Shown one piece after another: positions 7,891 through 55,704 of a DNA stretch of 64,000 nt (positions within the stretch are counted from its first letter, which is position 1; each line of letters opens with the position of its first letter). The DNA comes from Verrucomicrobiota bacterium (lineage in GTDB: Bacteria > Auribacterota > JABMQX01 > JAFGEW01), in NCBI GenBank assembly GCA_016931415.1, contig JAFGEW010000027.1, positions 4,550-68,549 of the forward strand, written 5' to 3'. The position numbers and the translations under genes are program-made. The notes under the pieces were generated by a model. That model worked only from the letters and a program-made list of their open reading frames with translations. It was not told where the DNA came from and did not search any database.

Positions 7891-7909
7891 GGCACTGAAG
7901 CCGCGCACG

Positions 7910-8497
7910 TCAGTCCTCCTTGGTGGCCTTGACAAGGCGCGCCAGCCGCAGCAGCTTCGAGCTGATCTTGAGCCCCGCGCGCTCGGCAGCCGCCGGGTTG
8001 ACTTCGAGCCGCACCTTGTTGTCTTCGATGACCAGACCGAGCGCTCCGCCCGCCTGGGCAAACCCTTTGGTGTCGGCCACGAGCAACACCGGCGTGTCTC
8101 GTAGTCTCTCGATCACGCCGGCGATGCGGCTGTGCTCGGAGACTGCGACAAACAAGATGTGGCACGGCGTGTAGGCCTCGAGGGTCTCGAAACGGCGCAC
8201 GATGATCCGCTTGTCGCCGACCTTCTTGGTCGCTGCAATCTCGTCGAGGAAGGTCCCGAAAGGATCGGAGCCGAGCACGCCGATCACGAACACGTCGGGC
8301 GTCTCGGGTACGGCGGTTGCCGGCCATTCGACGAACAGGGCGGCCTTATACAGAAACGCTGCCTTGATCTGGTACTCGCGGGCCACCAGCTCGGACGCGC
8401 CGGCGCGCCCCGCCATGGCAAACACAGCCGCCAACGCGATCAGGCCGGCGACTGCGGCGGTTGGACACAGCATCAAGGCCGTTCTGCGCAGCATCAC
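7910..8497 (-). CDS. DUF4154 / YfiR-like periplasmic protein.
   Basis: Signal peptide followed by conserved [18 protein letters not shown] ... CHILFV ... LLVADT ... ISSKLLRLA, typical of YfiR-family proteins linked to TonB-dependent receptors and sensor kinases. Confidence 0.7.
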
Positions 8498-12772: not shown

Positions 12773-12866
12773 CCGGAGTGCTCTGCGACAGCTAGACGGA
12801 TTGGACAACACGAGACACCAGCACCATGCCGGCTCAGACGAAGCGTCGGCGAGCCCGAGCGTATCC

Positions 12867-14039
12867 ATGGCAACACGAGCCCAGGTTCTCATCATCGACG
12901 CCGACGTGACCACGCTGGAGGCGCTCCGCGTCGGCTTGGCGAAAAACGGCTTCACCGTCGAGGCCCATGCCGACGCCCATGAGGCCTACCGGGCGCTGGC
13001 GGCCCGGCCGTTCGACGTCGTCATCGCCAGCCTCGGCGTGCCCCAGGCCGAGGGCCGCAAACTGCTCGAACGCGTCAAGCAGGGCGACCCGACCGTGCCG
13101 GTCATTTTCCTGGCCAACGGCTCGGCCTGCTCGTCCGCGGTCGAGGCGCTGCGACAAGGCGCCTTCGATATCGTCGAGGGGCCCATCCGCGTACCCAAGG
13201 TCCGATCGCTTGTCGAGCGCGCCATCGAGGTGCGCCGCTTGCGCGAGGAAGTGGCCCGCCTGCGTGCAGAAATGCTCGCCGGCACCTGCCCCGACGAGCT
13301 CATCGGCCAAAGCCCCCCCCTCGTCGCCGTCCTCGAGGCGATCCGGCGTGCAGCGGCCGACACAGGCTGCGTGTTGCTCTGCGGCGCGCCGGGCACCGGC
13401 AAAGAGCTGGCGGCCCGCACCATTCACCGGCTCAGCACCCGGGCAAGCAAACCGTTTGTTGCCGTCGACTGCGCCGCCCTCAACGAGGCCTTCGTCGAGA
13501 GCGAGCTTTTCGGCCACGTGCGAGGCGCCTTCCCCGGCGCCTTCGCCGACCACGCCAGCCTGATCGAGACCGCGGATGGCGGCACGTTGTTCCTCAACTC
13601 GATCGACGTGCTGTCGAAAGCGGCCCAAGTACGCCTGCTCAAGGTCATCGACGAGCGCGTGATCCGTCCGCTCGGCTCGACCGCGTCGCGCCCCGTCGAG
13701 GCCCGGCTCGTGGCCGGCACCGCAACCGATCCTGCAACCGCCGCCGGCCGCCGCCGAGTCCGGGAGGATCTTCTTGCCCGCCTGAGCACGGTGCGCATCG
13801 CCCTTCCCGAGCTCAAGGAGCGGTCCGAGGACATCCCGCTACTCGCCAATTTCTTCGCCAAGACCATGGGCGCACGCCTCGGCACCCCGCCGCCTGCAAT
13901 CTCGCCCAAGGCGATGGCAATCCTCATGGATCGGCCCTGGCCAGGCAACGTCCGACAACTGCGCGACGTGGTTGAGCGCGCCGCCCTTCTGACCGACAGC
14001 GCTCAGATCTGCCCAGAACACCTCGGCGAGCCAACCTAG
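12867..14039 (+). CDS. Sigma-54-dependent response regulator (REC + AAA+ sigma-54 interaction domain). It ends at TAG before any DNA-binding domain.
   Basis: REC domain (VLIIDADV...DVVIASLGVP); Walker A GAPGTGKE; ESELFGHVRGAFPGA; GNVRQLRDVVERA. See the finding on the in-frame extension 14040..14279. Confidence 0.8.
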   Translation: MATRAQVLIIDADVTTLEALRVGLAKNGFTVEAHADAHEAYRALAARPFDVVIASLGVPQAEGRKLLERVKQGDPTVPVIFLANGSACSSAVEALRQGAFDIVEGPIRVPKVRSLVERAIEVRRLREEVARLRAEMLAGTCPDELIGQSPPLVAVLEAIRRAAADTGCVLLCGAPGTGKELAARTIHRLSTRASKPFVAVDCAALNEAFVESELFGHVRGAFPGAFADHASLIETADGGTLFLNSIDVLSKAAQVRLLKVIDERVIRPLGSTASRPVEARLVAGTATDPATAAGRRRVREDLLARLSTVRIALPELKERSEDIPLLANFFAKTMGARLGTPPPAISPKAMAILMDRPWPGNVRQLRDVVERAALLTDSAQICPEHLGEPT

Positions 14040-23055: not shown

Positions 23056-23243
23056 GTCGCCTCCAGAAACGCCTGCGCCCTGTTGTTCGACGGGATCTCC
23101 AGACCCCGTGCCACATCCGGCCGAAGCCTGCGCGGCACCGCGTCGGAGCTTGGCCTTGACCCGCCTGCGCCCGGCTGCCAGAATCCGCTGCACCGGGTTG
23201 GTTCAGTCTAGCACAGGCCCCCGCACTTGCACAGGAGGAAGCC

Positions 23244-24863
23244 ATGGGCGTCGAGATACGCCCCATCGAGGAGGGCGACATCCAGGGCGTCATCGCCCTG
23301 TACCGCAAGGTCTACGGCGACGACTTCCCGTTCAAGCAGTTCTATGAGCCGACTTGGGTGCGCAAGGGCATCTACGACGACGACTTGGTCTGGAGCGTCG
23401 CCGAGCTCGACGGTCGCATCGTCGGTTCAGCCGCCGTTATGGTCAACGTCGGCGACCACGACGACCTCATCGGCGAGTTCGGACGCCTCGTCGTCGACCC
23501 GGACGCCCGCGGCCACGGCGTCGGCCAAGCGCTCGGCCAGATGCGCGTCGACGCCGTGAGCCGGCACATCGAGTTCGGCTTCGCCGAGGCGCGCGCCGTC
23601 CATCCGGGCGCACAGAAGATCATGGATCGCCTCGGCTTTGCCGCGATCGGGTTCGAGCCGATGAAGTACGTGCTCCGCCGCCGCGAGAGCGTCGTGTTCT
23701 TCGGCCGGCACTTCGGCAATGCGGCCGCGCTGCGCAAGAACAATCCGCAGGTCATCAGCGCCGTGCACGCCCTCGGCTCGCGCGCCCTCGAGAACATGGG
23801 TCTCGAGCCCGACCTCATCGTCAAGGCCGAGGTCGAGCCTTATCCGTCAGATCTCGAGTACGAGATCGTCGAGCTCCAGGGCGCCTGGTCGCACCGCCTC
23901 CTGCGCATCGAGCAGGGCCGCGTCGTCAAGCCCGAGGTTTTCGGCGGCATGCACCTCGACTACGGCTACCTCAAGATCAAGGCGGCCGCTGCGACCTACC
24001 TCGTCGCGCGTGAGCACGGCGCTCCCGTCGGCGCCATCGGGTTCACCATCGACGACATCGACCGCAAGTGCCGCATCTTCGAGCTCATCGAGTTCGACGA
24101 CGCGGTCAAGGGCTTCCTCCTCCGCTGCGTCACGGAGCGCGCCGAGACCCAATACGGCTGCGACTATATCGAGGTTGACGTCAACGCCCATTCGCCGCGG
24201 CTCCAGTGCACGCTCGACCTGCTCGGCTATGTGCCGGTCGCCTACTGCCCGGCGATGGTGTTCCACACCGTCGAGCGGCTCGACGTGGTGAAGATGGCCA
24301 AGGTCGTCTGCGACTACGAGCTCGGCGGGGTCGACCTCATCGACAACGCGAAACCGCTCTTCGACATCGTCAACAACGCGATGGTGCAGAAGAAGAAGGG
24401 CGTCGAGATCGACTCGATCATGGCACGCATCGGCATCTTCGAAGGCCTCGACTGGGCCGGCATCGACCGGATCGGCCGCATCTGCACCGAGAAGCAGTTC
24501 AAGGCCGGCGAGACGGTTTTCGCCGAGGGCAGCGAGGGCGCCCAGATGTACGTGGTCACTCGCGGCTCGATCGAGATCCGCGATTCCTCCTCGGGCGACG
24601 GGACGGTCGCCGCCGTGCGTGCCGGCGAGATCTTCGGCGAGTTCGCTCTCATCGACGCGTTGCCGCGTTCGATGTCGGCCGTCTGCGTCGAAGACGCCAC
24701 CGTGCTGGTGATCGCCAAGCGCGATTTCGACCACCTCATGGCCTACCATCCCTCGATCGGCTCGCGCGTCTACCGCAACATCGCCGCGACGCTCGTCGGC
24801 CGCCTCCGCCGCACGAACGTCAGCCTCGCCCTGCATAAGCTGAAGTACGAGACGGAGGACTAA
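23244..24863 (+). CDS. Tandem GNAT-fold acetyltransferase fused to a C-terminal cyclic-nucleotide-binding domain.
   Basis: GNAT acetyl-CoA motif RLVVDPDARGHGVGQAL. The cNMP-binding domain has a phosphate-binding cassette, GEIFGEFALID...PRSMSAVC. Confidence 0.7.
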   Translation: MGVEIRPIEEGDIQGVIALYRKVYGDDFPFKQFYEPTWVRKGIYDDDLVWSVAELDGRIVGSAAVMVNVGDHDDLIGEFGRLVVDPDARGHGVGQALGQMRVDAVSRHIEFGFAEARAVHPGAQKIMDRLGFAAIGFEPMKYVLRRRESVVFFGRHFGNAAALRKNNPQVISAVHALGSRALENMGLEPDLIVKAEVEPYPSDLEYEIVELQGAWSHRLLRIEQGRVVKPEVFGGMHLDYGYLKIKAAAATYLVAREHGAPVGAIGFTIDDIDRKCRIFELIEFDDAVKGFLLRCVTERAETQYGCDYIEVDVNAHSPRLQCTLDLLGYVPVAYCPAMVFHTVERLDVVKMAKVVCDYELGGVDLIDNAKPLFDIVNNAMVQKKKGVEIDSIMARIGIFEGLDWAGIDRIGRICTEKQFKAGETVFAEGSEGAQMYVVTRGSIEIRDSSSGDGTVAAVRAGEIFGEFALIDALPRSMSAVCVEDATVLVIAKRDFDHLMAYHPSIGSRVYRNIAATLVGRLRRTNVSLALHKLKYETED

Positions 24864-24930: not shown

Positions 24931-26295
24931 ATGCGCTACCACGACGCGATCGACAGGCTATACACCATCCGCATGTTCGGCGCGAAGCTCGGGCTGGCAA
25001 ACACTCGCCATCTGCTCGACGCGCTCGGCCACCCGGAACAGCGCTATCGCATCGTCCACGTAGCCGGCACGAACGGCAAAGGCTCGGTCGCGGCGCTCGT
25101 TGCCTCCGCACTTAAGGCCGCCGGCCACACGGTCGGCCTGTTTACCTCGCCGCACATCTCGTCATTTCGTGAGCGGATGCAGGTCAATGGCCAGTCCGCA
25201 AGCGAGGCCGAGATCGCCGCGCATCTCGAACGCCTCCTGCCCATCGTTGACGATATGGCACGGCGCGATGACGTCACCTCCCCCACCTTCTTCGAAGTCG
25301 TCACGGCCATGGCCGCCGATCTTTTCGCCGCGCGGGGCTGCGACCTCGCCGTCTTCGAGGTCGGCATGGGCGGCCGCCTCGATGCGACCAACGCGCTGCC
25401 GGCCGCGGTCTCGGCCATCACGAGCATCGGCCTCGACCACACCGAATGGCTCGGCTCGACCATCCCCGAGATTGCGTTCGAGAAAGCCGGCATCATCAAG
25501 CCCGGCGTGCCTGTCGTGACCGACGCGCTCCCGGACGCCGCGCGCGACGTCGTCCGCTGCGCCGCCGCCGAGCGCCGGGCTCCGCTCATCGAGGGGGGCC
25601 GCGACATCGTCGTCGAGACCCGTACGCCGTCTCGCGAGGGCCAGACACTCACCGTCCGTACGCCCAACGGCCGCTATGACAACCTGCACCTTGGCCTGCA
25701 CGGCGCGCACCAGGCCGGGAACTGCACCGTCGCCCTCGGCGTCTTAGAGTCGCTGGCTGATCAGGGGGTCGATGTGCCGCGCGAGGCGATCGTCTCGGGC
25801 GTGCGCACCGCGCGCTGGCCCGGGCGCTTCGAGATCGTTCCGGGCGATCCGGCGTTCATCCTGGACGCGGCGGCCAATCCCCCCGCGGCCCAGGTGCTCG
25901 CCGCGACGCTCGGCGAGTTCCTTGCCCCCGGCGAGCGGCTCGTGCTCGTTACCGGCGCGCTCAGGGACAAGGACACGGTGCGCATGTGCCGTGCGCTCGT
26001 CCCACGCGCCGACGAGGTCATCGTTACCGAGCCGGCGAGCACGCGGCGGCTGCACGCCGATGAGCTGTACTACACCGCCGGCCGCTATGCGCTCGGTTGC
26101 CCGGTCCGCGTTGTCAACGGGCTCGACGCGGCGCTCGAGACCGCCGCCGCCCGGCTGCGCGGGCGACAGGGCTTCGTCCTGGTCACCGGTTCGATCTTTC
26201 TGCTCGCCCGGGCACGCGAGATGCTCGGTATCGCCGAGGCAGCCCAGGACTTCCGCCTCACGGAAGTCCTTGCCACACCCCAGGCGAAACGGTAA
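24931..26295 (+). CDS. folC: Folylpolyglutamate synthase / dihydrofolate synthase.
   Basis: VAGTNGKGS P-loop and Mur-ligase-family layout of about 450 aa. Confidence 0.85.
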   Translation: MRYHDAIDRLYTIRMFGAKLGLANTRHLLDALGHPEQRYRIVHVAGTNGKGSVAALVASALKAAGHTVGLFTSPHISSFRERMQVNGQSASEAEIAAHLERLLPIVDDMARRDDVTSPTFFEVVTAMAADLFAARGCDLAVFEVGMGGRLDATNALPAAVSAITSIGLDHTEWLGSTIPEIAFEKAGIIKPGVPVVTDALPDAARDVVRCAAAERRAPLIEGGRDIVVETRTPSREGQTLTVRTPNGRYDNLHLGLHGAHQAGNCTVALGVLESLADQGVDVPREAIVSGVRTARWPGRFEIVPGDPAFILDAAANPPAAQVLAATLGEFLAPGERLVLVTGALRDKDTVRMCRALVPRADEVIVTEPASTRRLHADELYYTAGRYALGCPVRVVNGLDAALETAAARLRGRQGFVLVTGSIFLLARAREMLGIAEAAQDFRLTEVLATPQAKR

Positions 26296-26353
26296 CGAAG
26301 GGGCGTCGCATTCACAGCAAGCCGGTCATTGCATCGAGGAGACTGACGACACC

Positions 26354-28195
26354 ATGTGCGGCATCGTTGGGTATATCGGCGCGCGCGACGCGCAAGACAT
26401 CCTGATCACCGGGCTCAAGCGGCTCGAGTACCGCGGCTACGACTCGTGCGGCATCGCCGTGCTCAGCCCGGCCGGCGAGATCGTCGTCGCCAAGAAGGAG
26501 GGACGCATCTCCAACCTGGAAGCCGCCCTTGCGGACCACCGCCTCGCCGGCACAACCGGCATCGGCCACACGCGCTGGGCCACCCACGGTCGTCCAAGCG
26601 ACGTCAACGCCCACCCGCATCGCGACGGCTCGGGCAGCGTCGTGCTCGTCCACAACGGGATCATCGAGAACTACGGCGAACTCAAGGAAGCGCTCCGTCT
26701 CAAGGGCCACGCCTTCGAATCCGAGACCGACACCGAAGTGGTCGCCCATTTGATCGAGGACGAGTTCGAGAACGGCGCCGCCACCCTGCTCGAGGCCACC
26801 CGCACCGCCCTCAAGCGCGTGCGCGGCGCCTACGCGCTCTGCATCATGCGCACGAGCGAGCCCGACCGCCTTATTGCCGCGCGCTCCGGTGCGCCGTTGC
26901 TCATGGGCGTTGGCGATGGCGAGTACTTCCTTTCGAGCGACGCCGCGCCCATCATCCCCTACACGCGCCGCGTGCTCTACCTTAACGACGAGGAGCTGCT
27001 CGAGATTCACCGCGACGGCTTCACCAAGATCAGCCTCGACGGCGAGCCCCTCGAGAGCACGATCTCGCAGATCACCTGGACGGCCGAGGAAGCCGAGAAG
27101 GGCGGCTACGAGACCTTCATGCTCAAGGAAATCTACGAACAGCCGGCCGCGCTCCGCCGCACGTTGAGCAGCCTGATCGACTCGAAAACCGGCGAGCTCC
27201 TCGTCGAGAACGCACCGTTGACGGCCGAACGCCTCCGCTCGCTTACCGACATCTCGGTCGTCTCGTGCGGCACCGCCCTCCACGCCGGCATGGTCGGTAC
27301 CTACCTCGCCAACGAGCTGTGCGGCCTCGACGTGCATACCGAGTGGGCGAGTGAGTTCCGCTACCGCCGCCTCAAGCTCAACCCGCAGCGCATGGTGCTC
27401 GTGATCTCGCAGTCGGGCGAAACCGCCGACACGCTCGCCAGCCTCCGCGCGGCCAAGGCGCTCGGCGCCCCCGTGCTCGGGATCATCAACGTGCGCGAGA
27501 GCACGATCGCCCGCGAGAGCGACCACGTGCTCTATACTCAAGCCGGCCCGGAGATTGGCGTCGCCTCGACCAAAGCCTACACGAGCCAGATCGCGGCTAT
27601 GGTTGTCTTTGCGCTGCACCTCGCGCGTGTGCGCGGCGAGATGAGCGATGACGACTACAATCGTTTTATGCGCGACCTGCTCGCCGTGCCCGACGTGATC
27701 GAGCGCATGCTGGCCGACATCACGACAATCAAGCGCATCGCCGACCGCGTCTACGATGCGCGGAGCTCGCTCTATCTCGGCCGTGGTTTCAATTTTCCGT
27801 CGGCGCTCGAGGGCGCGCTCAAGAACAAAGAGATCTCCTACATGCACTGCGAGGGCTATGCCGCCGGCGAGATGAAGCACGGGCCGATCGCGTTGATCCA
27901 GGCGCGTTTCCCCATCTTCAGCGTCTGCACCAAAGGCAGCACGTACGAGAAGATGGTGTCGAACATCAAGGAGGTCGGCGCGCGCAACGGCTACATCGTC
28001 ACCATTGCTACCGAGGGCGACGAACACATCAAGACGATCAGCGACGACGTGATCTACGTGCCCGAGGTACGCGAGGAGCTCTCGCCGCTCGTCAACGCCG
28101 TGCCGCTGCAACTGCTCGCTTACCACATCGCACGCATCCGTGGCTGCGACATCGACAAGCCGCGTAACCTGGCCAAGAGCGTCACGGTGGAGTAA
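26354..28195 (+). CDS. glmS: Glutamine--fructose-6-phosphate aminotransferase.
   Basis: MCGIVGYIG N-terminal Cys, two SIS domains and the C-terminal VTVE. Confidence 0.95.
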   Translation: MCGIVGYIGARDAQDILITGLKRLEYRGYDSCGIAVLSPAGEIVVAKKEGRISNLEAALADHRLAGTTGIGHTRWATHGRPSDVNAHPHRDGSGSVVLVHNGIIENYGELKEALRLKGHAFESETDTEVVAHLIEDEFENGAATLLEATRTALKRVRGAYALCIMRTSEPDRLIAARSGAPLLMGVGDGEYFLSSDAAPIIPYTRRVLYLNDEELLEIHRDGFTKISLDGEPLESTISQITWTAEEAEKGGYETFMLKEIYEQPAALRRTLSSLIDSKTGELLVENAPLTAERLRSLTDISVVSCGTALHAGMVGTYLANELCGLDVHTEWASEFRYRRLKLNPQRMVLVISQSGETADTLASLRAAKALGAPVLGIINVRESTIARESDHVLYTQAGPEIGVASTKAYTSQIAAMVVFALHLARVRGEMSDDDYNRFMRDLLAVPDVIERMLADITTIKRIADRVYDARSSLYLGRGFNFPSALEGALKNKEISYMHCEGYAAGEMKHGPIALIQARFPIFSVCTKGSTYEKMVSNIKEVGARNGYIVTIATEGDEHIKTISDDVIYVPEVREELSPLVNAVPLQLLAYHIARIRGCDIDKPRNLAKSVTVE

Positions 28196-28235
28196 GCCTT
28201 CGCCACAGATTCCCACAGAGGACACGAAACCCGCG

Positions 28236-28916
28236 ATGGCGAAGACGCAAGGACAGAGCACGTATCTCATCATCGGAGCCGGCAAGTTCGGCCAGGGCGT
28301 GGCTCGCGCGCTCGCCGAGCGCGGTGCGCGCGTGATCGCCGTCGATCGCCATCCCGAGGCGCTCGCCCAACTGTGCACCGTCGCCTCGAACACCCTCCAG
28401 TTCGACGCGACCGACGAGGCGGCGCTCACCGAGGCCGCGCGCGGCACGGACGTGGCCATCGTGAGCATCGGCGAAGATGTCGAATCGAGCCTCCTCATCG
28501 TCGCCGCGCTCAAGGAGGCAGGGGTGCCTACCGTCGTGGCCAAGGCACTCACCGACACCCATGGCAAGCTGCTCGCGCGCGTGGGAGCCGACCGCATCGT
28601 GTTCCCCGAACGGGACATGGGCCGCAAGCTGGCCGCCTCACTCGTCTCGCCGATGATCTTCGATCAGGTCGAGGTCACCCCCGGCTACGCGATCCTCGAG
28701 GTGACCGCCTCCGGCGCCTTGTGTGGCAAGAGCCTCGCCCAATCCGACATCCGCGCCCAGTACGGCGTCACCATCATTGCCATCAAGCCCGGCGGTGGTG
28801 CCCGCCGCGAAGCCGTCGTCGCACCGCCGGCCGACACGGTCATCGCCGAGGGCGACATTCTCGTCGTCATCGGGACCGACGCCGACATCGAGCGCTTCCG
28901 CCGTGTGACCGCCTGA
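28236..28916 (+). CDS. TrkA/KtrA-type K+ transport regulatory subunit (TrkA-N + TrkA-C).
   Basis: Rossmann GAGKFG motif and C-terminal TrkA-C (VTASGALCGKSLAQSDIRAQYGVTIIAIK). Confidence 0.75.
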   Translation: MAKTQGQSTYLIIGAGKFGQGVARALAERGARVIAVDRHPEALAQLCTVASNTLQFDATDEAALTEAARGTDVAIVSIGEDVESSLLIVAALKEAGVPTVVAKALTDTHGKLLARVGADRIVFPERDMGRKLAASLVSPMIFDQVEVTPGYAILEVTASGALCGKSLAQSDIRAQYGVTIIAIKPGGGARREAVVAPPADTVIAEGDILVVIGTDADIERFRRVTA

Positions 28917-43060: not shown

Positions 43061-45778
43061 TCACAGCGGCGCGAGTGCGGCGCCATCGGCGTGCTCTGCC
43101 AACGACGCCTCTTCGATAAGCACGATAATCCGCCGCTGCGCCTGCGCCACGTCCCGAACGAACGCCCGGAACTCGGCGTAGTCGGCGGGGCTAATCTCGG
43201 CCACGCCCAGCTCGAACCGGTTGCAGCACACGATCGCGCCATCCTTATTGACGCTATAGGACTCCGAATAGGTCCCGATTTCTGTCCGAATCTCGAGCGC
43301 CTCCGGCAGGTTGCGTACCCGGAAGCCCTGCGGCACGGCAAGCACAAGCTCTCCCTCGCGCCGCATCGTCTGGCCGAGCCGCAACGGCTGCTGACGCTCG
43401 GGTATCGTCGCGAGATTCAGCAACCCGATGCGCTGAAGGGGCGCCGTGAGCACGATCAGATCGCCGGCCGTCGACGCGTAGCTCGGCGCCGTGTACGTGC
43501 GCGAGTAGACAATCGCGTCGGCCATCTCGACCATGCCCTGGATTGCATACTGGTCAAGCGTCGCCCCGGCACTGAAGTTGCCCAGCGCCTCCTGGAGCAT
43601 CGCCTTCTGCCCCGCGGCGTCGGCGTACCGGTAGGTGGCGCGGAACTGGTCGGCGAACGCGCCCCGGTACTCGACATGCTCCTCGACACGCAGCGTCCCG
43701 TCGCGCCCGACGGCCGCCGTGCCCGTATTCCTGAGCAAGTTCGCCTCGGCCGGCAACACCGGGATCTGCATGAACTCGCCCTTGGCCTCGCCGATGACGA
43801 ACACGGTACGGCCCTGGTCGTTGACTGGGATGTCGCCGAACGCCGTCTCGCCTCCCGTGCTGTCGAGCCAGTAGCGCGTCCCGTCAATCACCACGGTGGC
43901 GATGGCGTGGTTGAACTGGTCGAGCGTCGGCATCTCGGGATCGACCTGTGCCATGACGTCGGTGGCCACGAGCACGATGCTGCCGCGGATCCCCGCCTCA
44001 TCGAGCATCGTGAGCAGCAGCGTCGCCTTGTCCTTGCAGTCGCCATACCGGTTCTCGTAGATGCTCGACGCCGAGTGCGGCTGGTAGCCGTGCGGCCCGA
44101 GTTCGAGTCCGACGTAGCGGATCTTCGAGCACACGTAGTTGTAGACCGCCCGCGCCTTCTCGAGCTCGGTTGTCTGTCCCTCGATCGCCTGCGCCACCGC
44201 CTGCCTGATTGGCTCGTCGGCTTGGCGCGCGTTGTCCGAGAGCCGCCGGTACCAGTCCCATACCATGTCCCAGGACGCGATCGACGTGGAGATCAGCCGC
44301 GTGCTCAGCGCCGCCGGCGCCGGCCCGTACGGCTCCGAGCGCAGCGGCGCGATGTCGGTGAGGACGTACTCGACCGTCTGCCCGTAGCGCTCCGTCCGCT
44401 CGCTCTTCTCCACGCTGAACGGTGGCTCGGACGGCACAAACCGCGTGTTCACCCGCTTGGTGTCCGGCACGGTGAACCGCATCACCACGCGCTCCTGCGG
44501 GATCGGCATCTCGATCGCGAACGTGTTCCAGAACTCCCGGCTGAGCTGCACGCTCTTGCCCGTCTTGACAAACGTGTAGTCCAGAATACAGCCGTCCTCG
44601 ACCGACGGCATGCTGAATCGCTTGTACCGCGACTCGGTGTAGAACAGCGCCGTCGTCGACTTGACGTCGTGGATATTGGCTGCATCGAGCACCGCGACCT
44701 CGCCGCTCGGCTTGATCGTCTTGGCCTCCTCGATCTCGAGCGTCTCGCTGAACGTGTTATAGAACACGATGACTTCCGAGTACTCGTGCCCCCCCTTGTT
44801 GAGCACCTTGACCCGGCGGCGCTCGCGGATCCGGTAGGTTAGATCCGTGCTGATCGAGTAGTCGATCTCCTTGAGCAGGACAATGGCCGGCGGCTTGAGC
44901 TCGGCCCACTTCGAACCCGCCTCGGTCACCTCGGCCTCGGCCTCGGCCGCTGGCAACGCCGCCGCACGCACCGCCGGCCCAACATACGTCGCAAGCGCCA
45001 GCGCCCCGTCGGTCGCCTCGCCTGAATCACGCTCACCCGGGATCTCCCGCGTCCCCTCGCCGTCGCCGTTGTCGTCGAGCATCGCGTGCTCGGTCGGGAT
45101 CAGTCCCCCCGTCTTGAACTCCCCGTCGACGAGCGCGCGTGCCTGCATGTACAACTCGCCAATCGAGGGCCGTTCGCCGGCGTTCGCCGTCTTCTCGAGC
45201 ACCTCCGAAAACACCCGGCCGAAACGCACCTTGTTGATCTCGCGGTCGGCCTTCGTCGCCGTGATCACGATGCGGCCCGGCCCCTGCAGCGGCGCCATGA
45301 AGTAGCCGCTTACCGGCGTCGACACGATGAGAATGAGCCGCCCCGGAAAACCCGCGAAAAGCTCGCCGAGGTCCTTGTCGCGTATGTCGCGCCCCGGCAG
45401 ATGAACGGACGCCTGCCGGCCCACCATCTCGGCGTGCCCAAGCACCACGACGAGCAACTGGTCCTCGGGTCGCGTCACCGCGCGCAGCCTCTCGACCGTC
45501 GCCTCGATCGTCTCGCGGCGGGGCAACCCGTCGGCGCCCACGCCCACCCGGGCCTCGTCGTCAAACAGCAGCGTGACGTTCTCGCGCGCGTACCCGTATG
45601 GCCCCGTCAGCACCGAGACAAACCGCTGCGCCGTCTCCCAGAACTCGACGTGGTTTTTCTGGTCGCCGGCGACACCCGCGATGATCAGCGCACGGTAGGC
45701 CCCGCCAGGGTCGCTGTCTGCCGCGAGACCCGCCGTGGCAAAGACAAAGATGCCGACAAGCGCAACGAACACTCTCAT
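43061..45778 (-). CDS. Secreted DUF3857 + transglutaminase-like domain protein (about 905 aa).
   Basis: Signal peptide MRVFVALVGIFVFATAGLAA. Transglutaminase core YGDCKDKATLLLTMLDEAGIRGSIVLV. Start chosen at M95 of the ORF. Confidence 0.65.
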   Translation of the reverse strand: MRVFVALVGIFVFATAGLAADSDPGGAYRALIIAGVAGDQKNHVEFWETAQRFVSVLTGPYGYARENVTLLFDDEARVGVGADGLPRRETIEATVERLRAVTRPEDQLLVVVLGHAEMVGRQASVHLPGRDIRDKDLGELFAGFPGRLILIVSTPVSGYFMAPLQGPGRIVITATKADREINKVRFGRVFSEVLEKTANAGERPSIGELYMQARALVDGEFKTGGLIPTEHAMLDDNGDGEGTREIPGERDSGEATDGALALATYVGPAVRAAALPAAEAEAEVTEAGSKWAELKPPAIVLLKEIDYSISTDLTYRIRERRRVKVLNKGGHEYSEVIVFYNTFSETLEIEEAKTIKPSGEVAVLDAANIHDVKSTTALFYTESRYKRFSMPSVEDGCILDYTFVKTGKSVQLSREFWNTFAIEMPIPQERVVMRFTVPDTKRVNTRFVPSEPPFSVEKSERTERYGQTVEYVLTDIAPLRSEPYGPAPAALSTRLISTSIASWDMVWDWYRRLSDNARQADEPIRQAVAQAIEGQTTELEKARAVYNYVCSKIRYVGLELGPHGYQPHSASSIYENRYGDCKDKATLLLTMLDEAGIRGSIVLVATDVMAQVDPEMPTLDQFNHAIATVVIDGTRYWLDSTGGETAFGDIPVNDQGRTVFVIGEAKGEFMQIPVLPAEANLLRNTGTAAVGRDGTLRVEEHVEYRGAFADQFRATYRYADAAGQKAMLQEALGNFSAGATLDQYAIQGMVEMADAIVYSRTYTAPSYASTAGDLIVLTAPLQRIGLLNLATIPERQQPLRLGQTMRREGELVLAVPQGFRVRNLPEALEIRTEIGTYSESYSVNKDGAIVCCNRFELGVAEISPADYAEFRAFVRDVAQAQRRIIVLIEEASLAEHADGAALAPL

Positions 45779-46056
45779 GAAGACTCTTACTCTCTCTGGC
45801 CGGTCATAAGGCCCGCCCAAGTGACGAGGAACAAATAGGAGCCAACGATGATCCGGCAACCGCGCCGCAGAAACAGCGCACGGGCCTCGGTCGCCCGTGT
45901 TCCGCTCCCAATTGCTGTGCACTTCAAAGACTCTGTTTTGTAGCACGCGGTTCCGCGCAGGGCAAGACAGAACGGCGAGACTCCGGCCCCAAGGCAGGGC
46001 GTGCGGCAGAAGAAACTGTTTGACTACTCTGATGCGCGACCGGCAGGCGGGGGCTC

Positions 46057-47127
46057 TCACCCACCCGGTAGCTCCCCCTCGGAACCGCCGGGCTGGCGGG
46101 TGCCGGGCTCGATATCGGTCAGCGCGATGCCGTGGCGGTAGACGCGGACCTCGCCGGTGGACTCGCTGACCACAATGGCGATGGAGTTGCTGACGGCGGC
46201 GGTGATGGACGCGGCGGCGAGATGCCGCGCGCCAAGTCCCGGCGGCAGCTCGGCCGGCGTGATCCGCGCGTCGAGATAGGTGCCGGCGGAAAGGACGATG
46301 CCCTTGGTGTCGATGACAAAGGCACCATCGATGGTCGAGAACTCCTTGATCGTGGCGCGCACGGAGGGATCGAGTATCTGGCGTTGGCGCTCGCTATAGC
46401 CCTTGAACGGATTGAGGACGAGCTGGCGCACGTGGTCCTTGAGCGCCTTGGTGTCGCCGATGACGAAGATGGTGCCGACTGGCTTGCCTTCGCGCCCCTG
46501 GTTGGCCAGCTCGAGAGCCAACTCGAGGACCGTGTCGAAGACGCCGGCCTTGACGCGCCTGGCAAATCCCCCGATGTCCGACGTGGTGATCACCTCGGTC
46601 TCAGTGCCTACCTGCAGAACCAGGATCGTGTCGAGCACGCCCGCCTCCGGCAGCCCGGAAACGCAGACGACCCGGTCGCCCGTCTTGAGCAGCCCGCGCG
46701 AAGCCGCCATGACCATCGCGACCTTGATCTTGCCCACGCGCCCCATGGGAATGCTGGGAACCTTGAGCACCTTGCACGCGGCGGCATCGGGGAGTACCAT
46801 CTGGTCAGTCGACTGCGTGACGACGTAGATGTCGAAGCGGCGTTTCGACGCATCCAGGACGCGCCCGGACGGGAGCAGATCGGCCGAGATGAACACCGCA
46901 AGGGCCTGGAAACGGTCCGCGATCTCGAGCGCGTGGTCAATGACCATGTTGGACAGGGAACTGCCGTCGGGCGACAGCGGGCCGGACACCGTCTTCAAAC
47001 CCGTCTTGCTTACGGCCTTCCCGCCTGCTCGTACAGGCAGCGCGGCTGTACGCCGGCGTGGCCGCCCCGTCTCCTTGGCGCCCGGCTTGTCGCGTGGCGC
47101 GCCCGCATCTCTGCTCGATATGGCCAT
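46057..47127 (-). CDS. CdaZ-type diadenylate cyclase: pyruvate-kinase C-terminal-like domain + DAC domain (c-di-AMP synthase).
   Basis: DAC motifs GTIFVIGDT, DGAFVIDTKGIV, GARHLAAASIT, AIVVSESTGEVRV. N-terminal domain resembles PK_C (GDRVVCVSGLPEAGVLDTILV). ATG 9 nt after GGAGG. Confidence 0.65.
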   Translation of the reverse strand: MAISSRDAGAPRDKPGAKETGRPRRRTAALPVRAGGKAVSKTGLKTVSGPLSPDGSSLSNMVIDHALEIADRFQALAVFISADLLPSGRVLDASKRRFDIYVVTQSTDQMVLPDAAACKVLKVPSIPMGRVGKIKVAMVMAASRGLLKTGDRVVCVSGLPEAGVLDTILVLQVGTETEVITTSDIGGFARRVKAGVFDTVLELALELANQGREGKPVGTIFVIGDTKALKDHVRQLVLNPFKGYSERQRQILDPSVRATIKEFSTIDGAFVIDTKGIVLSAGTYLDARITPAELPPGLGARHLAAASITAAVSNSIAIVVSESTGEVRVYRHGIALTDIEPGTRQPGGSEGELPGG

Positions 47128-47567
47128 GACGGCTTGAGCTCCTCCTTCCTCACTATACCACAATGGGGCCATCTGTCGCCTTCCCGCGAGTTCGCCCGCC
47201 AGGCCATCAGACACGGGTGTCTCTTTGTCCTTGACAATCATCTACTAACTGAACAAAAAGCATACCAACCCAGTGCCACTGGGCACGCGGTGCAGCGCGT
47301 GACGGGCTTGCTCGCCAAAGACGGGTGCGACACCATGGCCCATACTTGAGCTGCGGTTGTGTGTCACCTTGTCCCGATTCCACTCGGCCAGAGCCAGGCA
47401 CACGATCGGCCGATGTCGGTAACAAGCGTCCGCGCAGGCTGTTAAGATGATACTATTCCGCTGGCACCGCACTTGCGTTCTGTCTGGCAGAGATGAGGTT
47501 TGCCCATTCGTGATCGGCTGAACAGCCTAGGGATAGCAGGAAGAAACTGACAAGGAGGGACGAAGGT

Positions 47568-47864
47568 TTGAAAACGAAAGTCAAGCCACTGGGCGGCCGC
47601 GTACTGGTCAAGCGGCTTGAGGAGACCGAGCGGACCAAAGGCGGGATCATCATCCCCGACAGCGCCAAAGAGAAGCCCAAAGAGGGTGAGATCGTCGCCC
47701 TCGGCACCGGCAAGATCGACAAGGAAGGCAAGAAGGTCGCCTTCAACGTCGCCGTCGGCGACCGGGTGCTCTTCACCTCGTACGCGGGCACCGAGGTGAC
47801 CGTGAATGACGAGGAATACCTCATCATGAGCGAGGACGACATCCTTGGTGTTGTCGCGAGATAG
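47568..47864 (+). CDS. groES: Co-chaperonin GroES (TTG start).
   Basis: KPLGGRVLVKRLEETERTKGGIIIPDSAKEKP. AAGGAGG SD. Confidence 0.9.
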   Translation: MKTKVKPLGGRVLVKRLEETERTKGGIIIPDSAKEKPKEGEIVALGTGKIDKEGKKVAFNVAVGDRVLFTSYAGTEVTVNDEEYLIMSEDDILGVVAR

Positions 47865-47879
47865 GCGCGCGCAAGGTAA

Positions 47880-49583
<1,704 letters not shown>

Positions 49584-50001: not shown

Positions 50002-50310
50002 ATGCCAACCTACGACTACGAGTGTCAGCGCTGCAAACACACCTTCGAGGCGTTCCAGAGCATGACCGAGAAGCCGTTGTCCAAGTGCCCCGAATGCGGC
50101 GGCCGGGTCCGCCGCCTCATCGGAGCGGGCGCCGGCATCATCTTCAAAGGCTCCGGCTTCTACGCCACCGACTACCGAAGCAAAAGCTACGCGAAAGGCG
50201 CCAAGGCGGACGCCCCTGCCGCCGAGCCCGGCTCGAAACCAGCCTGTCCGGCCGGCAAGAGCGGAGGCTGCCCCGGAGGCGCGTGCGGCCGTTCCAGCAA
50301 AACTGACTGA
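50002..50310 (+). CDS. FmdB-family zinc-ribbon regulatory protein.
   Basis: MPTYDYECQRCKHTFE...CPECGG is the FmdB CxxC...CxxC signature. Gly/Cys-rich tail. Confidence 0.65.
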   Translation: MPTYDYECQRCKHTFEAFQSMTEKPLSKCPECGGRVRRLIGAGAGIIFKGSGFYATDYRSKSYAKGAKADAPAAEPGSKPACPAGKSGGCPGGACGRSSKTD

Positions 50311-50381
50311 CGCCTCACCGCGGCCTCGCGCCGCCTGACCCGCCGCGTAGCCGAGTGCGATCGCACGAAAGAGGCTCGAAC

Positions 50382-51722
<1,341 letters not shown>

Positions 51723-51872: not shown

Positions 51873-52640
51873 CTACGCCCAACCGATGAACCTGGCCAGC
51901 GTGTAGCAGCCAAGCACGAAGATGATGCCCGCCACTGCCGGTTTGACGAGTCGCTCCGGTAGCCGCCTGACTGTGTGCGCCGCAAACGGCACTGACAGCA
52001 GCGCGCCCAGCATCAAAAATGGCGCCAGACGCCACGTCACCTCGGGGTGCAGCACCGCGTAGACAACGACGCCGACGAGACACGTGAGCCCCTCGGCCAG
52101 CGACGTGATCCCGATGGCGTTCTTGACCCCGACGCCCGAGAGCATCTGTCCGCCCATCACAAGCGGCCCGTAACCGCCGCCACTCAGCCCTTTGTTGAAC
52201 GAGGCCACCGCACCCACCGCCGTGATCTTTGCCCACGAGAACCGCGGCGTCCACCGCAGCGTGACGAGAATCACGCCGCCCATCGATAGAATGATGATGC
52301 CGATGATGAGCGTCAGCGTCTCCTTGCTGATCAGCGTCGTGAGCCACACGGCCCCCACCGTGCCCACCATCGAACACGCCGCCAGCACGACGGCGACTTT
52401 CGTGTCCTTCGAGCGGCGTTCGAACCGCACATTGCGGAAGCTGTGGTGCGCAAACGCCGCCGCCATCCCCGTGACAAACTCCGACATGAGCACCGCCGGC
52501 ACCACGTCCATCGGCTTGAACCCGAAGAAGACCATCAACACGGGCGTCAGAATCGTCCCGTACCCCATTCCCAAGCTCGAATCGCAGTACTCGCAGACGA
52601 ACGCGATCGGCACAAGCAGCAGAAGCTTCAGCTCCATCAA
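51873..52640 (-). CDS. TauE/SafE (DUF81) family sulfite/anion exporter-like membrane protein.
   Basis: Two-repeat, roughly 8-TM architecture with G-rich helices. Confidence 0.7.
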   Translation of the reverse strand: MMELKLLLLVPIAFVCEYCDSSLGMGYGTILTPVLMVFFGFKPMDVVPAVLMSEFVTGMAAAFAHHSFRNVRFERRSKDTKVAVVLAACSMVGTVGAVWLTTLISKETLTLIIGIIILSMGGVILVTLRWTPRFSWAKITAVGAVASFNKGLSGGGYGPLVMGGQMLSGVGVKNAIGITSLAEGLTCLVGVVVYAVLHPEVTWRLAPFLMLGALLSVPFAAHTVRRLPERLVKPAVAGIIFVLGCYTLARFIGWA

Positions 52641-52681
52641 TCCATCCTCTTTGCCGGCGTTACCCCTTGAAGAAAAACAAG

Positions 52682-53083
52682 CTAGACAAGATCGGCCAAG
52701 GTCGTCGCCTCAAGCCGCTCAGACACGTAGTCACGGATCTCCGTAAGCACCCCGATCACCTTCGCCTCCTTCTCCAGCGGCGTGTGCGAGAAGAAGTACT
52801 CGCTCACCGACTCGGTCGGCGCCAGCGCACCATCCATCAGACGGATCACCTCGGCCAGCGTGATCGCCCCAGGCGACTTGGCCAAGCAGTACCCGCCCTC
52901 GGCGCCCCGCCTGGCCCGCACGTAGCCGCTACGCTTGAGGATGAACAGAAGCTGCTCCAGGTACTTCTTGGGAATGCCGTACTTGGTGCAGATCCCCTCC
53001 ATCTTGACCAACTCGTCGCCCTTGTGCCGCGCCAGATGAATGAGCGCCAGGATCGAGTATTCACTTTTAGTCGTGAGCTTCAT
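52682..53083 (-). CDS. Rrf2-family transcriptional regulator.
   Basis: MKLTTKSEYSILALIHLA...LEQLLFILKRSGYVRARRGAEGGYCLAK is the Rrf2 wHTH. Contains a single Cys. Confidence 0.8.
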   Translation of the reverse strand: MKLTTKSEYSILALIHLARHKGDELVKMEGICTKYGIPKKYLEQLLFILKRSGYVRARRGAEGGYCLAKSPGAITLAEVIRLMDGALAPTESVSEYFFSHTPLEKEAKVIGVLTEIRDYVSERLEATTLADLV

Positions 53084-53101
53084 TGTTCTATATGAGATCT
53101 C

Positions 53102-53119
53102 TGTAGTCTAGCGACTACA
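53102..53119. promoter_or_regulatory. Perfect 7-4-7 palindrome TGTAGTC-TAGC-GACTACA, about 20 nt upstream of the rrf2 start codon; candidate Rrf2 autoregulatory operator.
   Basis: Read from the sequence. Resembles the IscR-type AGTC...GACT half-sites. Confidence 0.45.
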
Positions 53120-53481
53120 TAGACAATGGCGGCCGGTATGTCAAGCTCTGAAGAGAAAAAACATGTGCTTAAGTCTGAGCCTCTCAACAACTGCCCAGCG
53201 GGACTGGGAACGAGCGAAAAGAAGCGGCCCTGTCCTGAGGGGGATGGACAGGGCCGAGGGAAAGAGGGGTCGTAAAAGGAGGTGGTCTGTCTCGTCTATC
53301 CTATCTGGAGCCGCTGAGGTGCTGCGTCTTCGCCAGGTAACCGCTTTCTCAGAGGAAACTCGAAGGCAGTCGGTCCACCTGCTGCGCTCTTCCTCCGCTT
53401 CCTTCGTGGCCTTTGTTAGTGTATACGTGTCCCGCCCCGGCTTTGTTCCCCGGTGTCCAGGACTGATTCAGCGAGGATCGC

Positions 53482-55704
53482 ATGCCGCAACGAGACATCG
53501 ACAGCTTGCTCCAGCGCAGAGACAAGTGGTATCTCGGCGGCGGGGACGCAGTGATCTGGGCGCCCCGCTTCCCCATGTGGCTGACGCGTCCCGGATTCTG
53601 GGACGAGGCCCATGTCTACAACGAGCCGTTCGGCCCCGTGTTCGCCGTCTCGCTCATCGACGAGGAAGTGCGTGCGGTGCCGCTGCGGGCGCGTCGTTAC
53701 CAGTGGCGCCCCAGCTCGTTCAGTGTCAACTATGTCGTCGTCGGCCGCGCCGCGCGCGGACTGCGCGTTCGCGAGCGCAAGTGTGTGCTCGACAACGACG
53801 TGCTCGCCTCCGACTTCATCCTGCGCAACGAGGGCCGCTCGCCGCGGCGCCTGCACGTCGTGCTGTGGACGTGCCACCCTTACGCCCCCGACCCGCTCGC
53901 GCACCACGTCCGCGATGTGCGCGTGAGTGACGAGGCGATCGAGTTCGTCAAGATGCTTCAGGTGGGGCCCGGCCCGAAGCGCGACGTCACCTGCGTGCTC
54001 GGCACGGACGCGCCGCGGACCTCGTACCTCGTTCAGCTCTCGCAGCCCACCGAGAACCATCCGCGCTGGGCGCTCACGCCGTTCCACGACCGCTTCGATG
54101 GCCACAGCCTCGGCGATGAGATCAACCTCGGCGGGGTACACCGCGACGGGCTCGTCTACGTCGGCCAGCATGCCGTTGTCGAGCTTGCCCCGGGCGAGAA
54201 ACGCGCCATCAAGCTCTGCGCAGCGGTGGCCGAATCGCCCGACCGCGCCCGCGCCGCGCTCAAGAACGCCATCGCCACGCCCGGCCTGCTTGCCGACCGC
54301 TCGCGCCGCGCCTGGGGCCGCTACTTCGCCAGCCTCCCGCAGTTCGAATGCGACGACGAGTATCTGACCCGCTACTACTGGTACCGCTGGTATGGGCTCC
54401 GGCTCCTCACCACGCACGGCAACAACGACATAACCCCGTGGCCCTCTCTCAACGAGGGCATCGAATACTTCCGAGGGCCGATCGCCTACAGCGCTCCCGG
54501 CCATATGCTCGAGACCCGCTGGATGGCCGATCCCGAACTCGCACGCGGCTGCCTGCGCAACTTCATCCACAACCAGCGCCGCGACGGTTCGTTCCGCGGC
54601 ACGCTGCGCGTCCACCTTGGCGTCGGCTGGGACTTCTTCCACACCAACTGGGGCCGCGCCGTCATGGCCGTCGATGAACTCCATCCCGACGACGAGTTCC
54701 TGCGCGAGGTCTACGGACCGCTCTGCCGATACGCCGAGTACTTCGAACAACGCCGCGATTCCGAGGGAAGCGACCTCTACGACGTCATTGATCAGTTCGA
54801 GACGGGTCAGGAGTACATGAGCCGCTACACGGCCGTCAATGCCGCCGCCGACACCGGCTTGGGCGAGCCGATGATCCGGCTCAAGGGCGTCGACGCCACG
54901 CTCTACGTCTACGAGCTCCAGCGCGCGCTCGCCCGGATCGCCCGCCGCCTCGGCCTCAACGACGACGCTGTACGCTGGGACGCCGATGCCGACGCCACCC
55001 GCGCCGCGATGCGCTCCCGCATGTGGGACCCCGAGCGCGAGATGTTCTCCGACATCGATCCGAGCACCAACAGGCGCACGGGCATCGAGGCCGCCGTCTG
55101 CTTCTATCCCTACTTCACCGACGTGGCCGAACCGAAGCATGTCGCCGGGCTCGAACGCCACTTGCTCGATCCCGACGAGTTCTGGACCCCGTTCCCGGTG
55201 GCGACGACGAGTCGCAAGGACCCCTCGTTCGATCCCGCCAGCCGCTGGCGCCGCAAGCGCCACCACTGCCCATGGAACGGCCGCGTCTGGCCGATGGTCA
55301 ACAGCCACATCGTCGACGCCCTCGCCGGGGCCGGCCGCCACGACCCCCGCCTGCGGGAGCGCGCCGCCGAGCTGCTGCGCAAGTTCGTCCGCATGATGTT
55401 CTTCTACCAGGACGTGTCACGCCCCAACTGCTTCGAGCACTACAACCCGCTCACGGGCGCCGCCTCGGTCTTCCGCGGCATCGACGACTACCAACACTCC
55501 TGGGTCGTTGATCTCATCATCCGCTACGTCGCCGGCTTCCGCCCCCAGCCCGACGGCACCTACGCGATCGAGCCGCTGCCCTTCGGCCTCAAACGCGTCG
55601 TGCTCGACAACCTCCACTACCGCGGTAAGCGCCTCAGCATCGCGGTTGTGGACGGTCGTGTCAGCGTTAAGGAGAGCCGCATCCGGGCCAAGCCGCGGCC
55701 CTGA
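53482..55704 (+). CDS. (alpha/alpha)6-barrel glycoside hydrolase, GH63-like (glucosidase-I / mannosylglycerate-hydrolase family).
   Basis: 740 aa with conserved acidic/aromatic blocks (DQFETGQEYMSRY, HHCPWNGRVWPMVN) typical of GH63/GH37/GH15 folds. Family assignment is from memory only. Confidence 0.5.
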   Translation: MPQRDIDSLLQRRDKWYLGGGDAVIWAPRFPMWLTRPGFWDEAHVYNEPFGPVFAVSLIDEEVRAVPLRARRYQWRPSSFSVNYVVVGRAARGLRVRERKCVLDNDVLASDFILRNEGRSPRRLHVVLWTCHPYAPDPLAHHVRDVRVSDEAIEFVKMLQVGPGPKRDVTCVLGTDAPRTSYLVQLSQPTENHPRWALTPFHDRFDGHSLGDEINLGGVHRDGLVYVGQHAVVELAPGEKRAIKLCAAVAESPDRARAALKNAIATPGLLADRSRRAWGRYFASLPQFECDDEYLTRYYWYRWYGLRLLTTHGNNDITPWPSLNEGIEYFRGPIAYSAPGHMLETRWMADPELARGCLRNFIHNQRRDGSFRGTLRVHLGVGWDFFHTNWGRAVMAVDELHPDDEFLREVYGPLCRYAEYFEQRRDSEGSDLYDVIDQFETGQEYMSRYTAVNAAADTGLGEPMIRLKGVDATLYVYELQRALARIARRLGLNDDAVRWDADADATRAAMRSRMWDPEREMFSDIDPSTNRRTGIEAAVCFYPYFTDVAEPKHVAGLERHLLDPDEFWTPFPVATTSRKDPSFDPASRWRRKRHHCPWNGRVWPMVNSHIVDALAGAGRHDPRLRERAAELLRKFVRMMFFYQDVSRPNCFEHYNPLTGAASVFRGIDDYQHSWVVDLIIRYVAGFRPQPDGTYAIEPLPFGLKRVVLDNLHYRGKRLSIAVVDGRVSVKESRIRAKPRP

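Follow-up and report, generated by a model that had tools for sequence, protein, structure and literature searches.

A predicted DacZ/CdaZ-class diadenylate cyclase encoded beside groESL in a Verrucomicrobiota bacterium

We analysed a stretch of 64,000 nucleotides from a Verrucomicrobiota bacterium (assembly GCA_016931415.1, contig JAFGEW010000027.1, positions 4,550 to 68,549; the whole stretch is called the window below) and, within it, a minus-strand gene at positions 46057..47127. The gene, here named dacZ, encodes 356 amino acids (aa), the coordinates including the stop codon. Its product very probably belongs to the DacZ/CdaZ class of diadenylate cyclases and is a soluble enzyme, which is predicted to make cyclic di-AMP (c-di-AMP) and to be modulated by a domain resembling the C-terminal domain of pyruvate kinase (PK_C). 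Judged by its sequence, it is a two-domain cyclase composed of the PK_C-like domain DacZ_P plus a diadenylate cyclase (DAC) domain, and it is not a CdaA, DisA, CdaS or CdaM protein. Class and activity are read from the domain models, the best NCBIfam match to DacZ, the modelled folds, the invariant motifs, the GenBank name, and the existence of active archaeal relatives. An earlier sequence-only reading of this DNA had called the protein a CdaZ-type enzyme with PK_C-like and DAC domains. This class call proved to be right, as DacZ was the best NCBIfam match and the N-terminal domain retrieved pyruvate kinases in Foldseek.

Domain architecture and predicted fold

The two domains that the sequence-only reading had named were DisA_N and PK_C. 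The catalytic DAC domain (DisA_N, PF02457; 46108..46542, minus strand, about aa 196-340) was found above its Pfam gathering score, with E=9.9e-20 and 70.7 bits versus a cutoff of 27. The N-terminal domain (46594..46971, minus strand) was likewise found above the gathering score of DacZ_P (PF21755, "probable sensor domain"), with E=1.9e-13 and 50.6 bits versus a cutoff of 27.4, and a PK_C match within it remained below threshold (E=0.008, 16.7 bits versus a cutoff of 28). Sequence matches of the DAC domain in the PDB were CdaA, DacM, and CdaS.

A full-length AlphaFold2 model was built on 120 homologues and reached a predicted local distance difference test score (pLDDT) of 80 and a predicted template modelling score of 0.76. 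In this model, a disordered tail covers aa 1-50, an alpha/beta domain covers aa 53-172, and a linker leads to the DAC domain at aa 196-340. When this model was compared with the PDB using Foldseek, only the DAC half found matches, which were CdaA, DisA, DacM, and CdaM, with target-normalised template modelling (TM) scores of up to 0.65 for the single-domain CdaA, DacM, and CdaM chains. Therefore, the alpha/beta half was represented by a second model of the N-terminal domain alone (aa 50-190, pLDDT 83.5). The top 50 PDB matches of this model were all C-domains of pyruvate kinases, with a probability of 1.00 and TMq values of 0.56-0.65, and a different fold, which would have spoken against the sequence-only reading, was not among them. 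A profile of the N-terminal domain gave the same answer: 30 of the 35 listed PDB matches were pyruvate kinases, aligned within their C-terminal approximately 150 residues with E values from 0.01 upward, and the aligned region of E. coli PykF was residues 349-455. The proposed resemblance of the N-terminal half to the pyruvate kinase C-terminal domain was thus borne out by PF21755, Foldseek, and the profile search.

The resemblance did not extend to the effector site. The effector phosphate loop of pyruvate kinase (L-T-E-S/T-G-x-S/T) aligned with an unrelated DacZ_P segment (…ADLLPSGRVLD…). Because the sugar-phosphate loop (T-E-S/T-G-x-S/T) is not conserved, the fructose-1,6-bisphosphate site is not retained in DacZ_P, and this sugar phosphate is an unlikely ligand. 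Charged residues of the N-terminal domain that are invariant or nearly invariant in the family are R130, K135, D166, E176, and E178.

No membrane segment is evident, since the most hydrophobic parts of the protein map to elements of globular domains in the model. The two top 19-residue hydropathy windows (maxima of 1.79 and 1.75) lie at aa 152-172, which form strands, and at aa 300-320, which form a helix and a strand, and both sit within the globular domains of the AlphaFold2 model. The protein is thus predicted to be soluble.

The two domains are preceded by a basic N-terminal tail of about 52 aa (46972..47127, minus strand). The tail has an isoelectric point of 11.9, contains 12 lysines and arginines versus 3 aspartates and glutamates, and is predicted to be disordered, with pLDDT values of 42-55 across aa 1-50. 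It is present only in this verrucomicrobial clade, and its length and sequence differ among homologues. The tail encoded at the verrucomicrobial locus L086 (about 2000-2200) holds short tandem-like repeats (GAAGGCGTCTGYG…), which suggests rapid low-complexity evolution.

Catalytic motifs

All five peptides that had been quoted in the sequence-only reading were found in the translation, namely GDRVVCVSGLPEAGVLDTILVLQV in the N-terminal domain (aa 150-173), and GTIFVIGDT (aa 218-226), DGAFVID (aa 267-273), GARHLAAASIT (aa 299-309), and SESTGEVRV (aa 321-329). The DGA motif, D267-G268-A269 (46321..46329, minus strand), is followed by F270, and the position of the "RHR" motif is occupied by R301-H302-L303 (46219..46227, minus strand). 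In all 120 homologues, D267, G268, A269, F270, G299, R301, H302, and S321 are invariant. The third position of the RHR motif, by contrast, is variable, with V in 55, I in 16, A in 12, R in 10, L in 8, H in 8, Q in 5, and Y in 2 homologues. The sequence-only reading had implied intact DGA and RHR motifs; DGA(F) and R-H are intact, and the third residue of RHR is leucine in this protein. The last block reads S-E-S-T-G here and S-E-E-T-G in CdaA, so that its third position differs.

The leucine raises an alternative, namely that the DAC domain is degenerate, that R-H-L renders the enzyme dead, and that the protein acts as a receptor or regulator binding c-di-AMP or ATP. In M. tuberculosis DisA, replacement of RHR by AAA abolishes ATP binding and activity (PMC3328451). 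However, the third position varies throughout the family, and the near or complete invariance of DGAF, G-x-R-H, and S-E-S-T-G argues that purifying selection maintains a functional active site. Furthermore, the conserved contacts named in the contact maps of PanS and DisA are D, G, G, and the first R (bioRxiv 10.64898/2026.08.10.743927). The distribution of DAC classes also speaks against a dead enzyme: the tabulated classes exclude one another among the gut Verrucomicrobiota that encode a DAC protein, and 19 species have DacZ without CdaA or DisA (PMC12901056). We consider inactivation to be improbable and read R-H-L as a probably normal state within this class, not as a mark of inactivation. 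The preferred reading remains that of an active DacZ/CdaZ-class cyclase.

Relationship to known diadenylate cyclases

Scores of the NCBIfam subfamily models were used as a proxy for a phylogeny against CdaA, DisA, and archaeal CdaZ. DacZ scored by far the highest, with 140.2 bits (E=7.5e-41), compared with 25 bits for CdaA, 23.1 for CdaM, 19.4 for CdaS, and 12.4 for DisA. None of the DAC subfamily models reached its curated cutoff, which is 430 bits for DacZ (NF041371), 189 for CdaA (TIGR00159), 225 for CdaS (NF038328), 225 for CdaM (NF038327), and 201 for DisA (NF010009). The matches to CdaA, CdaS, CdaM, and DisA covered the DAC core only. Both the score cutoffs and the accessory domains place the protein outside these four classes, whose members carry transmembrane helices, YojJ helices, or a helix-hairpin-helix (HhH) DNA-binding domain.

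Among the closest characterized counterparts is DacZ of Haloferax volcanii (HVO_1660), a proven, essential, Mn2+-dependent c-di-AMP synthase (PMC6741144). Both proteins combine an N-terminal pyruvate kinase C-domain fold with a DAC domain containing DGA, and both are soluble. The 140-bit match to the DacZ model, the best-scoring DAC subfamily model, extends over model positions 64-267 of 270. In contrast to the haloarchaeal enzyme, the window protein has the additional basic, disordered N-tail of about 52 aa, and its host is a bacterium of the Verrucomicrobiota. The genomic contexts differ as well: haloarchaeal dacZ lies in an operon with mscS2 (PMC6741144), whereas the window gene is flanked by groESL on one side and by a transglutaminase gene on the other. 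CdaZ (DacY) of Methanocaldococcus jannaschii, for which DAC activity has been found in a heterologous host (PMC10249747; PMC6741144), has the same architecture of PK_C-like and DAC domains. Its N-terminal domain is caught by the PK_C model, whereas that of the window protein is caught by DacZ_P and matches PK_C only below threshold.

Bacterial proteins with DacZ_P and DAC domains share the Pfam architecture, 40-85% identity, and identical invariant residues with the window protein, and they are annotated as "diadenylate cyclase" or "DisA nucleotide-binding domain protein". Most of them measure 285-305 aa and do not have the basic N-tail. Similarity to CdaA (DacA) of Listeria, Bacillus, and Staphylococcus is limited to the DAC fold, with target-normalised TM scores of 0.60-0.65 and 20-24% identity, and includes DGA, G-x-R-H from the RHR block, and S-E-x-T-G. 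Unlike the window protein, CdaA carries three transmembrane helices at its N terminus, is under the control of CdaR and GlmM, has an intact RHR motif, and contains no PK_C-like domain. Compared with PK_C of pyruvate kinase itself, the alpha/beta fold is alike, but here a cyclase, and not a kinase barrel, is the fusion partner.

Several points weigh against the assignment of an active DacZ/CdaZ-class enzyme. The score of 140.2 versus 430 bits for the haloarchaeal DacZ equivalog NF041371 indicates relatedness and no ortholog-level membership. The likeness to archaeal DacZ/CdaZ was established at the level of family models. In the literature searched, there was no enzymology for this protein or for any bacterial DacZ-type enzyme. 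In addition, the protein has R-H-L in place of the canonical RHR, and the only mutant of this motif found in the literature was the triple RHR-to-AAA exchange (PMC3328451). On the other side, no Rfam element or riboswitch was detected in the dacZ-groES spacer, where the sole match was a meaningless miRNA (E=0.37), and we count the absence of a nearby riboswitch in favour of the assignment.

A second alternative, that of a defence-associated or product-diversified DAC protein that produces some nucleotide different from c-di-AMP, as in Panoptoo/DS-2 DAC proteins, is very improbable: it could draw on a weak PADLOC match, confined to the DAC domain, with a candidate model for "diadenylate cyclase" (E=4.5e-8), on a faint NCBIfam DS2_3 match (E=0.098), and on the ability of DAC domains to make other cyclic dinucleotides (bioRxiv 10.64898/2026.08.10.743927), but the adjoining genes encode chaperonins, a transglutaminase, and Bat/MoxR proteins and none of them is a defence gene, the synteny in the clade and in other phyla is stable and housekeeping-like, and DacZ is the best family match by a wide distance. 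An anti-phage defence context was accordingly rejected, as there was a weak DAC-domain match alone and no defence neighbours.

Proposed mechanism

The dimer mechanism of DAC domains is reportedly known from work on DisA (Witte, 2008) and on CdaA (Rosenberg, 2015; Heidemann, 2019). By analogy with DisA and CdaA, two DAC domains of the DacZ/CdaZ-class enzyme would meet head-to-head, each carrying one ATP and a divalent metal ion (Mn2+ or Mg2+). The 3'-OH of each ATP would then attack the alpha-phosphate of the other, yielding 3',3'-c-di-AMP and two pyrophosphates. The PK_C-like domain would control the formation of productive DAC dimers. This control might be exerted via oligomerisation, as in the C-domains of pyruvate kinases, or via binding of a small molecule at a putative site formed by the conserved charged residues R130, K135, D166, E176, and E178.

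The c-di-AMP formed would have its usual targets, which lie in the homeostasis of potassium and osmolytes. The RCK domain type binds c-di-AMP in KtrA/TrkA-like regulators of potassium transport. A gene for a protein with TrkA_N and TrkA_C (RCK) domains is present in the window at 28053-28916 (plus strand), 17 kb from dacZ and adjoining a glmS-like gene (25748-28195, plus strand). Its product is a plausible candidate for a c-di-AMP receptor.

Start codon and upstream signals of dacZ

The minus-strand open reading frame (ORF) ending at 46057 has two candidate ATG start codons, at 47241 (394 aa) and at 47127 (356 aa). Its GC contents at the three codon positions, 0.66/0.49/0.82, follow the pattern of real genes in the window, which has 65% GC. 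The 356-aa product is an exact match to GenBank MBN1916840.1, "diadenylate cyclase [Verrucomicrobiota bacterium]", and this form was called by both GenBank and Logan.

A GGAGG Shine-Dalgarno motif is located at 47141-47145, 11-13 nt 5' of the ATG at 47127. Further upstream, a sigma-70-like promoter candidate was found at 47152..47179 (minus strand), consisting of GCGACA, a 16-nt spacer, and TATAGT with an upstream TG. Together with its extended -10 region, the candidate reads TGGTATAGT and falls within the longer, 394-aa ORF. The scan for sigma-70-like promoters upstream of dacZ yielded this one site, versus 0.2 expected. Conservation was seen for both signals. GGAGG and the start-codon column are kept in 4 of 4 aligned verrucomicrobial upstream regions (with GTG as the start codon in L086), and the TATAGT/TATACT box is kept in the three of the four regions that span it, while the surrounding sequence has diverged. 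Thus, dacZ appears to have its own sigma-70-type promoter.

The alternative that the gene is longer and starts at 47241, with a conserved N-terminal peptide (…LWYSEEGGA…), is unlikely. The frame is indeed open as far as 47241, and similar N-terminal peptides have been called in several homologues (MPALWYSDEGGA, MPALCYSEEGGA, and …LVCYSGDGGA). However, at the DNA level the "conserved peptide" corresponds to TG-n-TATA(G/C)T and GGAGG just 5' of the conserved start-codon column, and the upstream ORF is missing in other relatives (P0012, P0015). The 394-aa ORF was therefore rejected, its seeming N-terminal conservation being that of promoter and Shine-Dalgarno DNA. The start at 47127 is the better candidate because of the GGAGG motif, the promoter inside the longer ORF, the upstream conservation, and the 356-aa GenBank annotation. 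The gene at 46057-47127, with its start at 47127, can be regarded as real, as had been proposed from the sequence alone; the ORF, its codon-position GC, the Pfam domains, and the conserved upstream signals agree on this point, and the domain matches go far beyond chance.

Gene calls of several homologues are affected by the same signals. In the extensions of P0002, P0004, P0008, and P0010, which correspond to window positions 47128-47241 (minus strand), the peptide …W/C-Y-S-x-E/D-G-G-A… is the translated -10 box plus Shine-Dalgarno motif. P0012 and P0015 were seemingly called too short, as the conserved column of start codons (ATG, with GTG in L086) is located farther upstream than their called starts.

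Approximately 130 nt 5' of the dacZ start, the block TTGGTA(T/C)GCTTTTTGTT (47252-47268, minus strand) is kept between the window and L082 while its flanks have diverged; it might represent an operator or mark where an element ends. A sigma-54 promoter for dacZ was also considered, with TGGCAC-N5-TGGTA at about 47283..47265 (minus strand), and rejected: its -12 box is without GC, and L082 does not have the TGGCAC half.

Distribution in bacteria

The sequence-only reading had implied that an archaeal domain combination in a bacterium was something new. This did not hold, since the protein had already been named, PF21755 exists, at least 564 bacterial species genomes contain the locus, and the occurrence in bacteria is described in the literature. 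A word-indexed search yielded 1204 relatives, essentially all with PF21755 and PF02457, many of which carried the labels Nitrospinae, Deltaproteobacteria, Thermodesulfobacteria, or Verrucomicrobia. When 1.84 billion cluster representatives (50% identity) were searched exhaustively with a profile, 659 clusters were retrieved at E<=1e-30 and 1395 at E<=1e-10; the 5054 clusters at E<=0.001 probably include DAC proteins of other classes. When one genome from each GTDB species was scanned, the locus was confirmed in at least 564 bacterial species genomes. Details of neighbourhood and taxonomy, here and below, refer to the best 80 of these at least 564 loci. They belonged to Verrucomicrobiota, Nitrospinota, Nitrospirota, and Planctomycetota (Brocadiaceae, Sedimentisphaerales, Pirellulales, Isosphaeraceae), and further to Syntrophales/Smithella and other Thermodesulfobacteriota, Tectomicrobia/Entotheonella, Methylomirabilales, and Chitinispirillaceae.

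These findings agree with published work. The presence of the DacZ/CdaZ family in bacteria has already been stated in print (Braun et al.). A 2026 survey that assigns DacZ by InterPro IPR014499 found that 19 of 21 DacZ-encoding gut species are Verrucomicrobiota, the main DacZ phylum of the gut (PMC12901056). The window protein is thus an ordinary representative, with its annotation already in place, of a class that is known and widespread. Apart from contributing one verrucomicrobial DacZ whose basic tail is specific to its clade, the gene matters little; the heat-shock adjacency described below is the only lead worth following up, as it hints at a testable input.

In a large subfamily of about 440-450 aa, which includes P0117 (469 aa) and many representatives of 435-480 aa (P0133-P0269), an extra N-terminal domain of about 155 aa precedes DacZ_P-DAC. 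In P0117 this domain is PTS_EIIA_2 (PF00359). Such a fusion points to a phosphotransfer or nitrogen-phosphotransferase-system input into this class of predicted cyclases.

Linkage of dacZ to heat-shock genes

The ORFs of the 80 GTDB loci were clustered, recurrent neighbours were annotated, and the DAC tree was collapsed at 60% identity. A heat-shock or proteostasis gene was located within 3.2 kb of dacZ in 8 of the 21 collapsed lineages. The corresponding binomial P value is about 4e-9 to 4e-6 on a background of 2-5%, which was assumed and not measured. The partners differed among lineages. In about 30 Syntrophales-type genomes, rpoH (TIGR02392, above cutoff) is divergent from dacZ, and dacZ is followed after about 13 bp by clpB and then by htpX and DUF1844. 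A Tectomicrobia genome has the order clpB-dnaK-dacZ-htpX. In other lineages, htrA precedes dacZ (with a 3-bp overlap in L044), htrA is divergent (Sedimentisphaerales), or dacZ is followed by dnaK (158 bp). In the verrucomicrobial clade, groESL (plus htrA) is divergent from dacZ, which in the window corresponds to 46057-49583 and 50307-51722. Apart from the approximately 30 Syntrophales-type loci, the linkage was found at L004, L008, L010, L014, L015, L025, L027, L044, and L082-L088. Among the 80 loci, no heat-shock link was seen in Nitrospinota, in the ychF-dacZ-pth group, and in several Planctomycetota.

Because different chaperone and protease partners adjoin dacZ in separate lineages, we tentatively propose, as a possibility that we regard as less likely than not, that bacterial DacZ-type cyclases are functionally wired into the heat-shock or protein-quality-control response. 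If this is true, c-di-AMP synthesis would be co-regulated with, or responsive to, proteotoxic or envelope stress, and the input could enter through the PK_C-like domain. No paper proposing a link between dacZ and heat shock was found in the literature searched, which did not include the key survey Galperin 2023.

A sigma-54-type element upstream of groES

The groES-groEL genes (47568..49583, plus strand) are divergent from dacZ, with groES at 47568-47864 (TTG start) and groEL at 47952-49583, both above their NCBIfam cutoffs. A sigma-54-type -24/-12 element, TGGCAC-N5-TTGC, is located at 47462..47476 (plus strand), 92 nt upstream of groES, and is the sole exact match in the 64-kb window. The element (TTGGCACCGCACTTGC) lies 77-92 nt 5' of the groES TTG start across four verrucomicrobial genomes. 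It is present in every verrucomicrobial relative with unchanged place and orientation (L082, 7762-7776; L084, 4539-4553; L086, 1508-1522; all minus strand), and it forms an island of identity (TTGGCACC.C.CTTGC) amid a diverged spacer. A CIRCE/HrcA operator was not found upstream of groES, even when 3 mismatches were allowed. The element is read as a putative promoter element of groES, not of dacZ, and its conservation suggests RpoN-dependent expression of groESL in this verrucomicrobial clade. An NtrC-type sigma-54 activator is encoded in the window at 12693-14039 (plus strand). At L027, one such sigma-54-type element was seen about 0.9 kb upstream of dnaK.

Genomic neighbourhood

The neighbours named in the sequence-only reading, a transglutaminase gene, Bat genes, and divergent groESL, were all confirmed. 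Downstream of dacZ and co-directional with it lies a gene for a 905-aa protein with DUF3857 and a transglutaminase core (43061..45778, minus strand), an adjacency that is syntenic in the verrucomicrobial clade only. Terminator-like hairpins are present between the two genes at 45841-45899; such matches occur at chance level. Beyond the transglutaminase gene, a 71-aa ORF is followed by genes for MoxR (AAA_3), DUF58, a prepilin-type N-methyl protein, BatA/VWA, and DUF4175. On the other side, groEL is followed by a Zn-ribbon gene and then by a gene for an HtrA/DegP-type protease; in relatives, an rpoZ gene precedes the Zn-ribbon gene. This gene order is common to verrucomicrobial relatives of 65-74% identity, with the exception of L084, which is without the MoxR/DUF58/BatA part. 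The transglutaminase and Bat genes were rejected as functional partners, as they are kept only in the close verrucomicrobial clade and MoxR/DUF58/BatA are gone in L084. Their adjacency to dacZ looks like lineage synteny and not like a functional unit.

A few kb past groEL-htrA, a TauE/Rrf2 gene pair (51873-53107, minus strand), syntenic in L082, and an MGH1-like glycoside hydrolase gene (mannosylglycerate hydrolase; 53467-55704, plus strand) were found. The latter could belong to compatible-solute metabolism. Elsewhere in the window, a GNAT acetyltransferase is fused to a cNMP-binding domain (cyclic nucleoside monophosphate; 23160-24863, plus strand), and the region at 1128-8112 (minus strand) encodes two hybrid histidine kinases with PAS or CHASE8 domains, two YfiR/HmsC-like proteins, and a TonB-dependent receptor.

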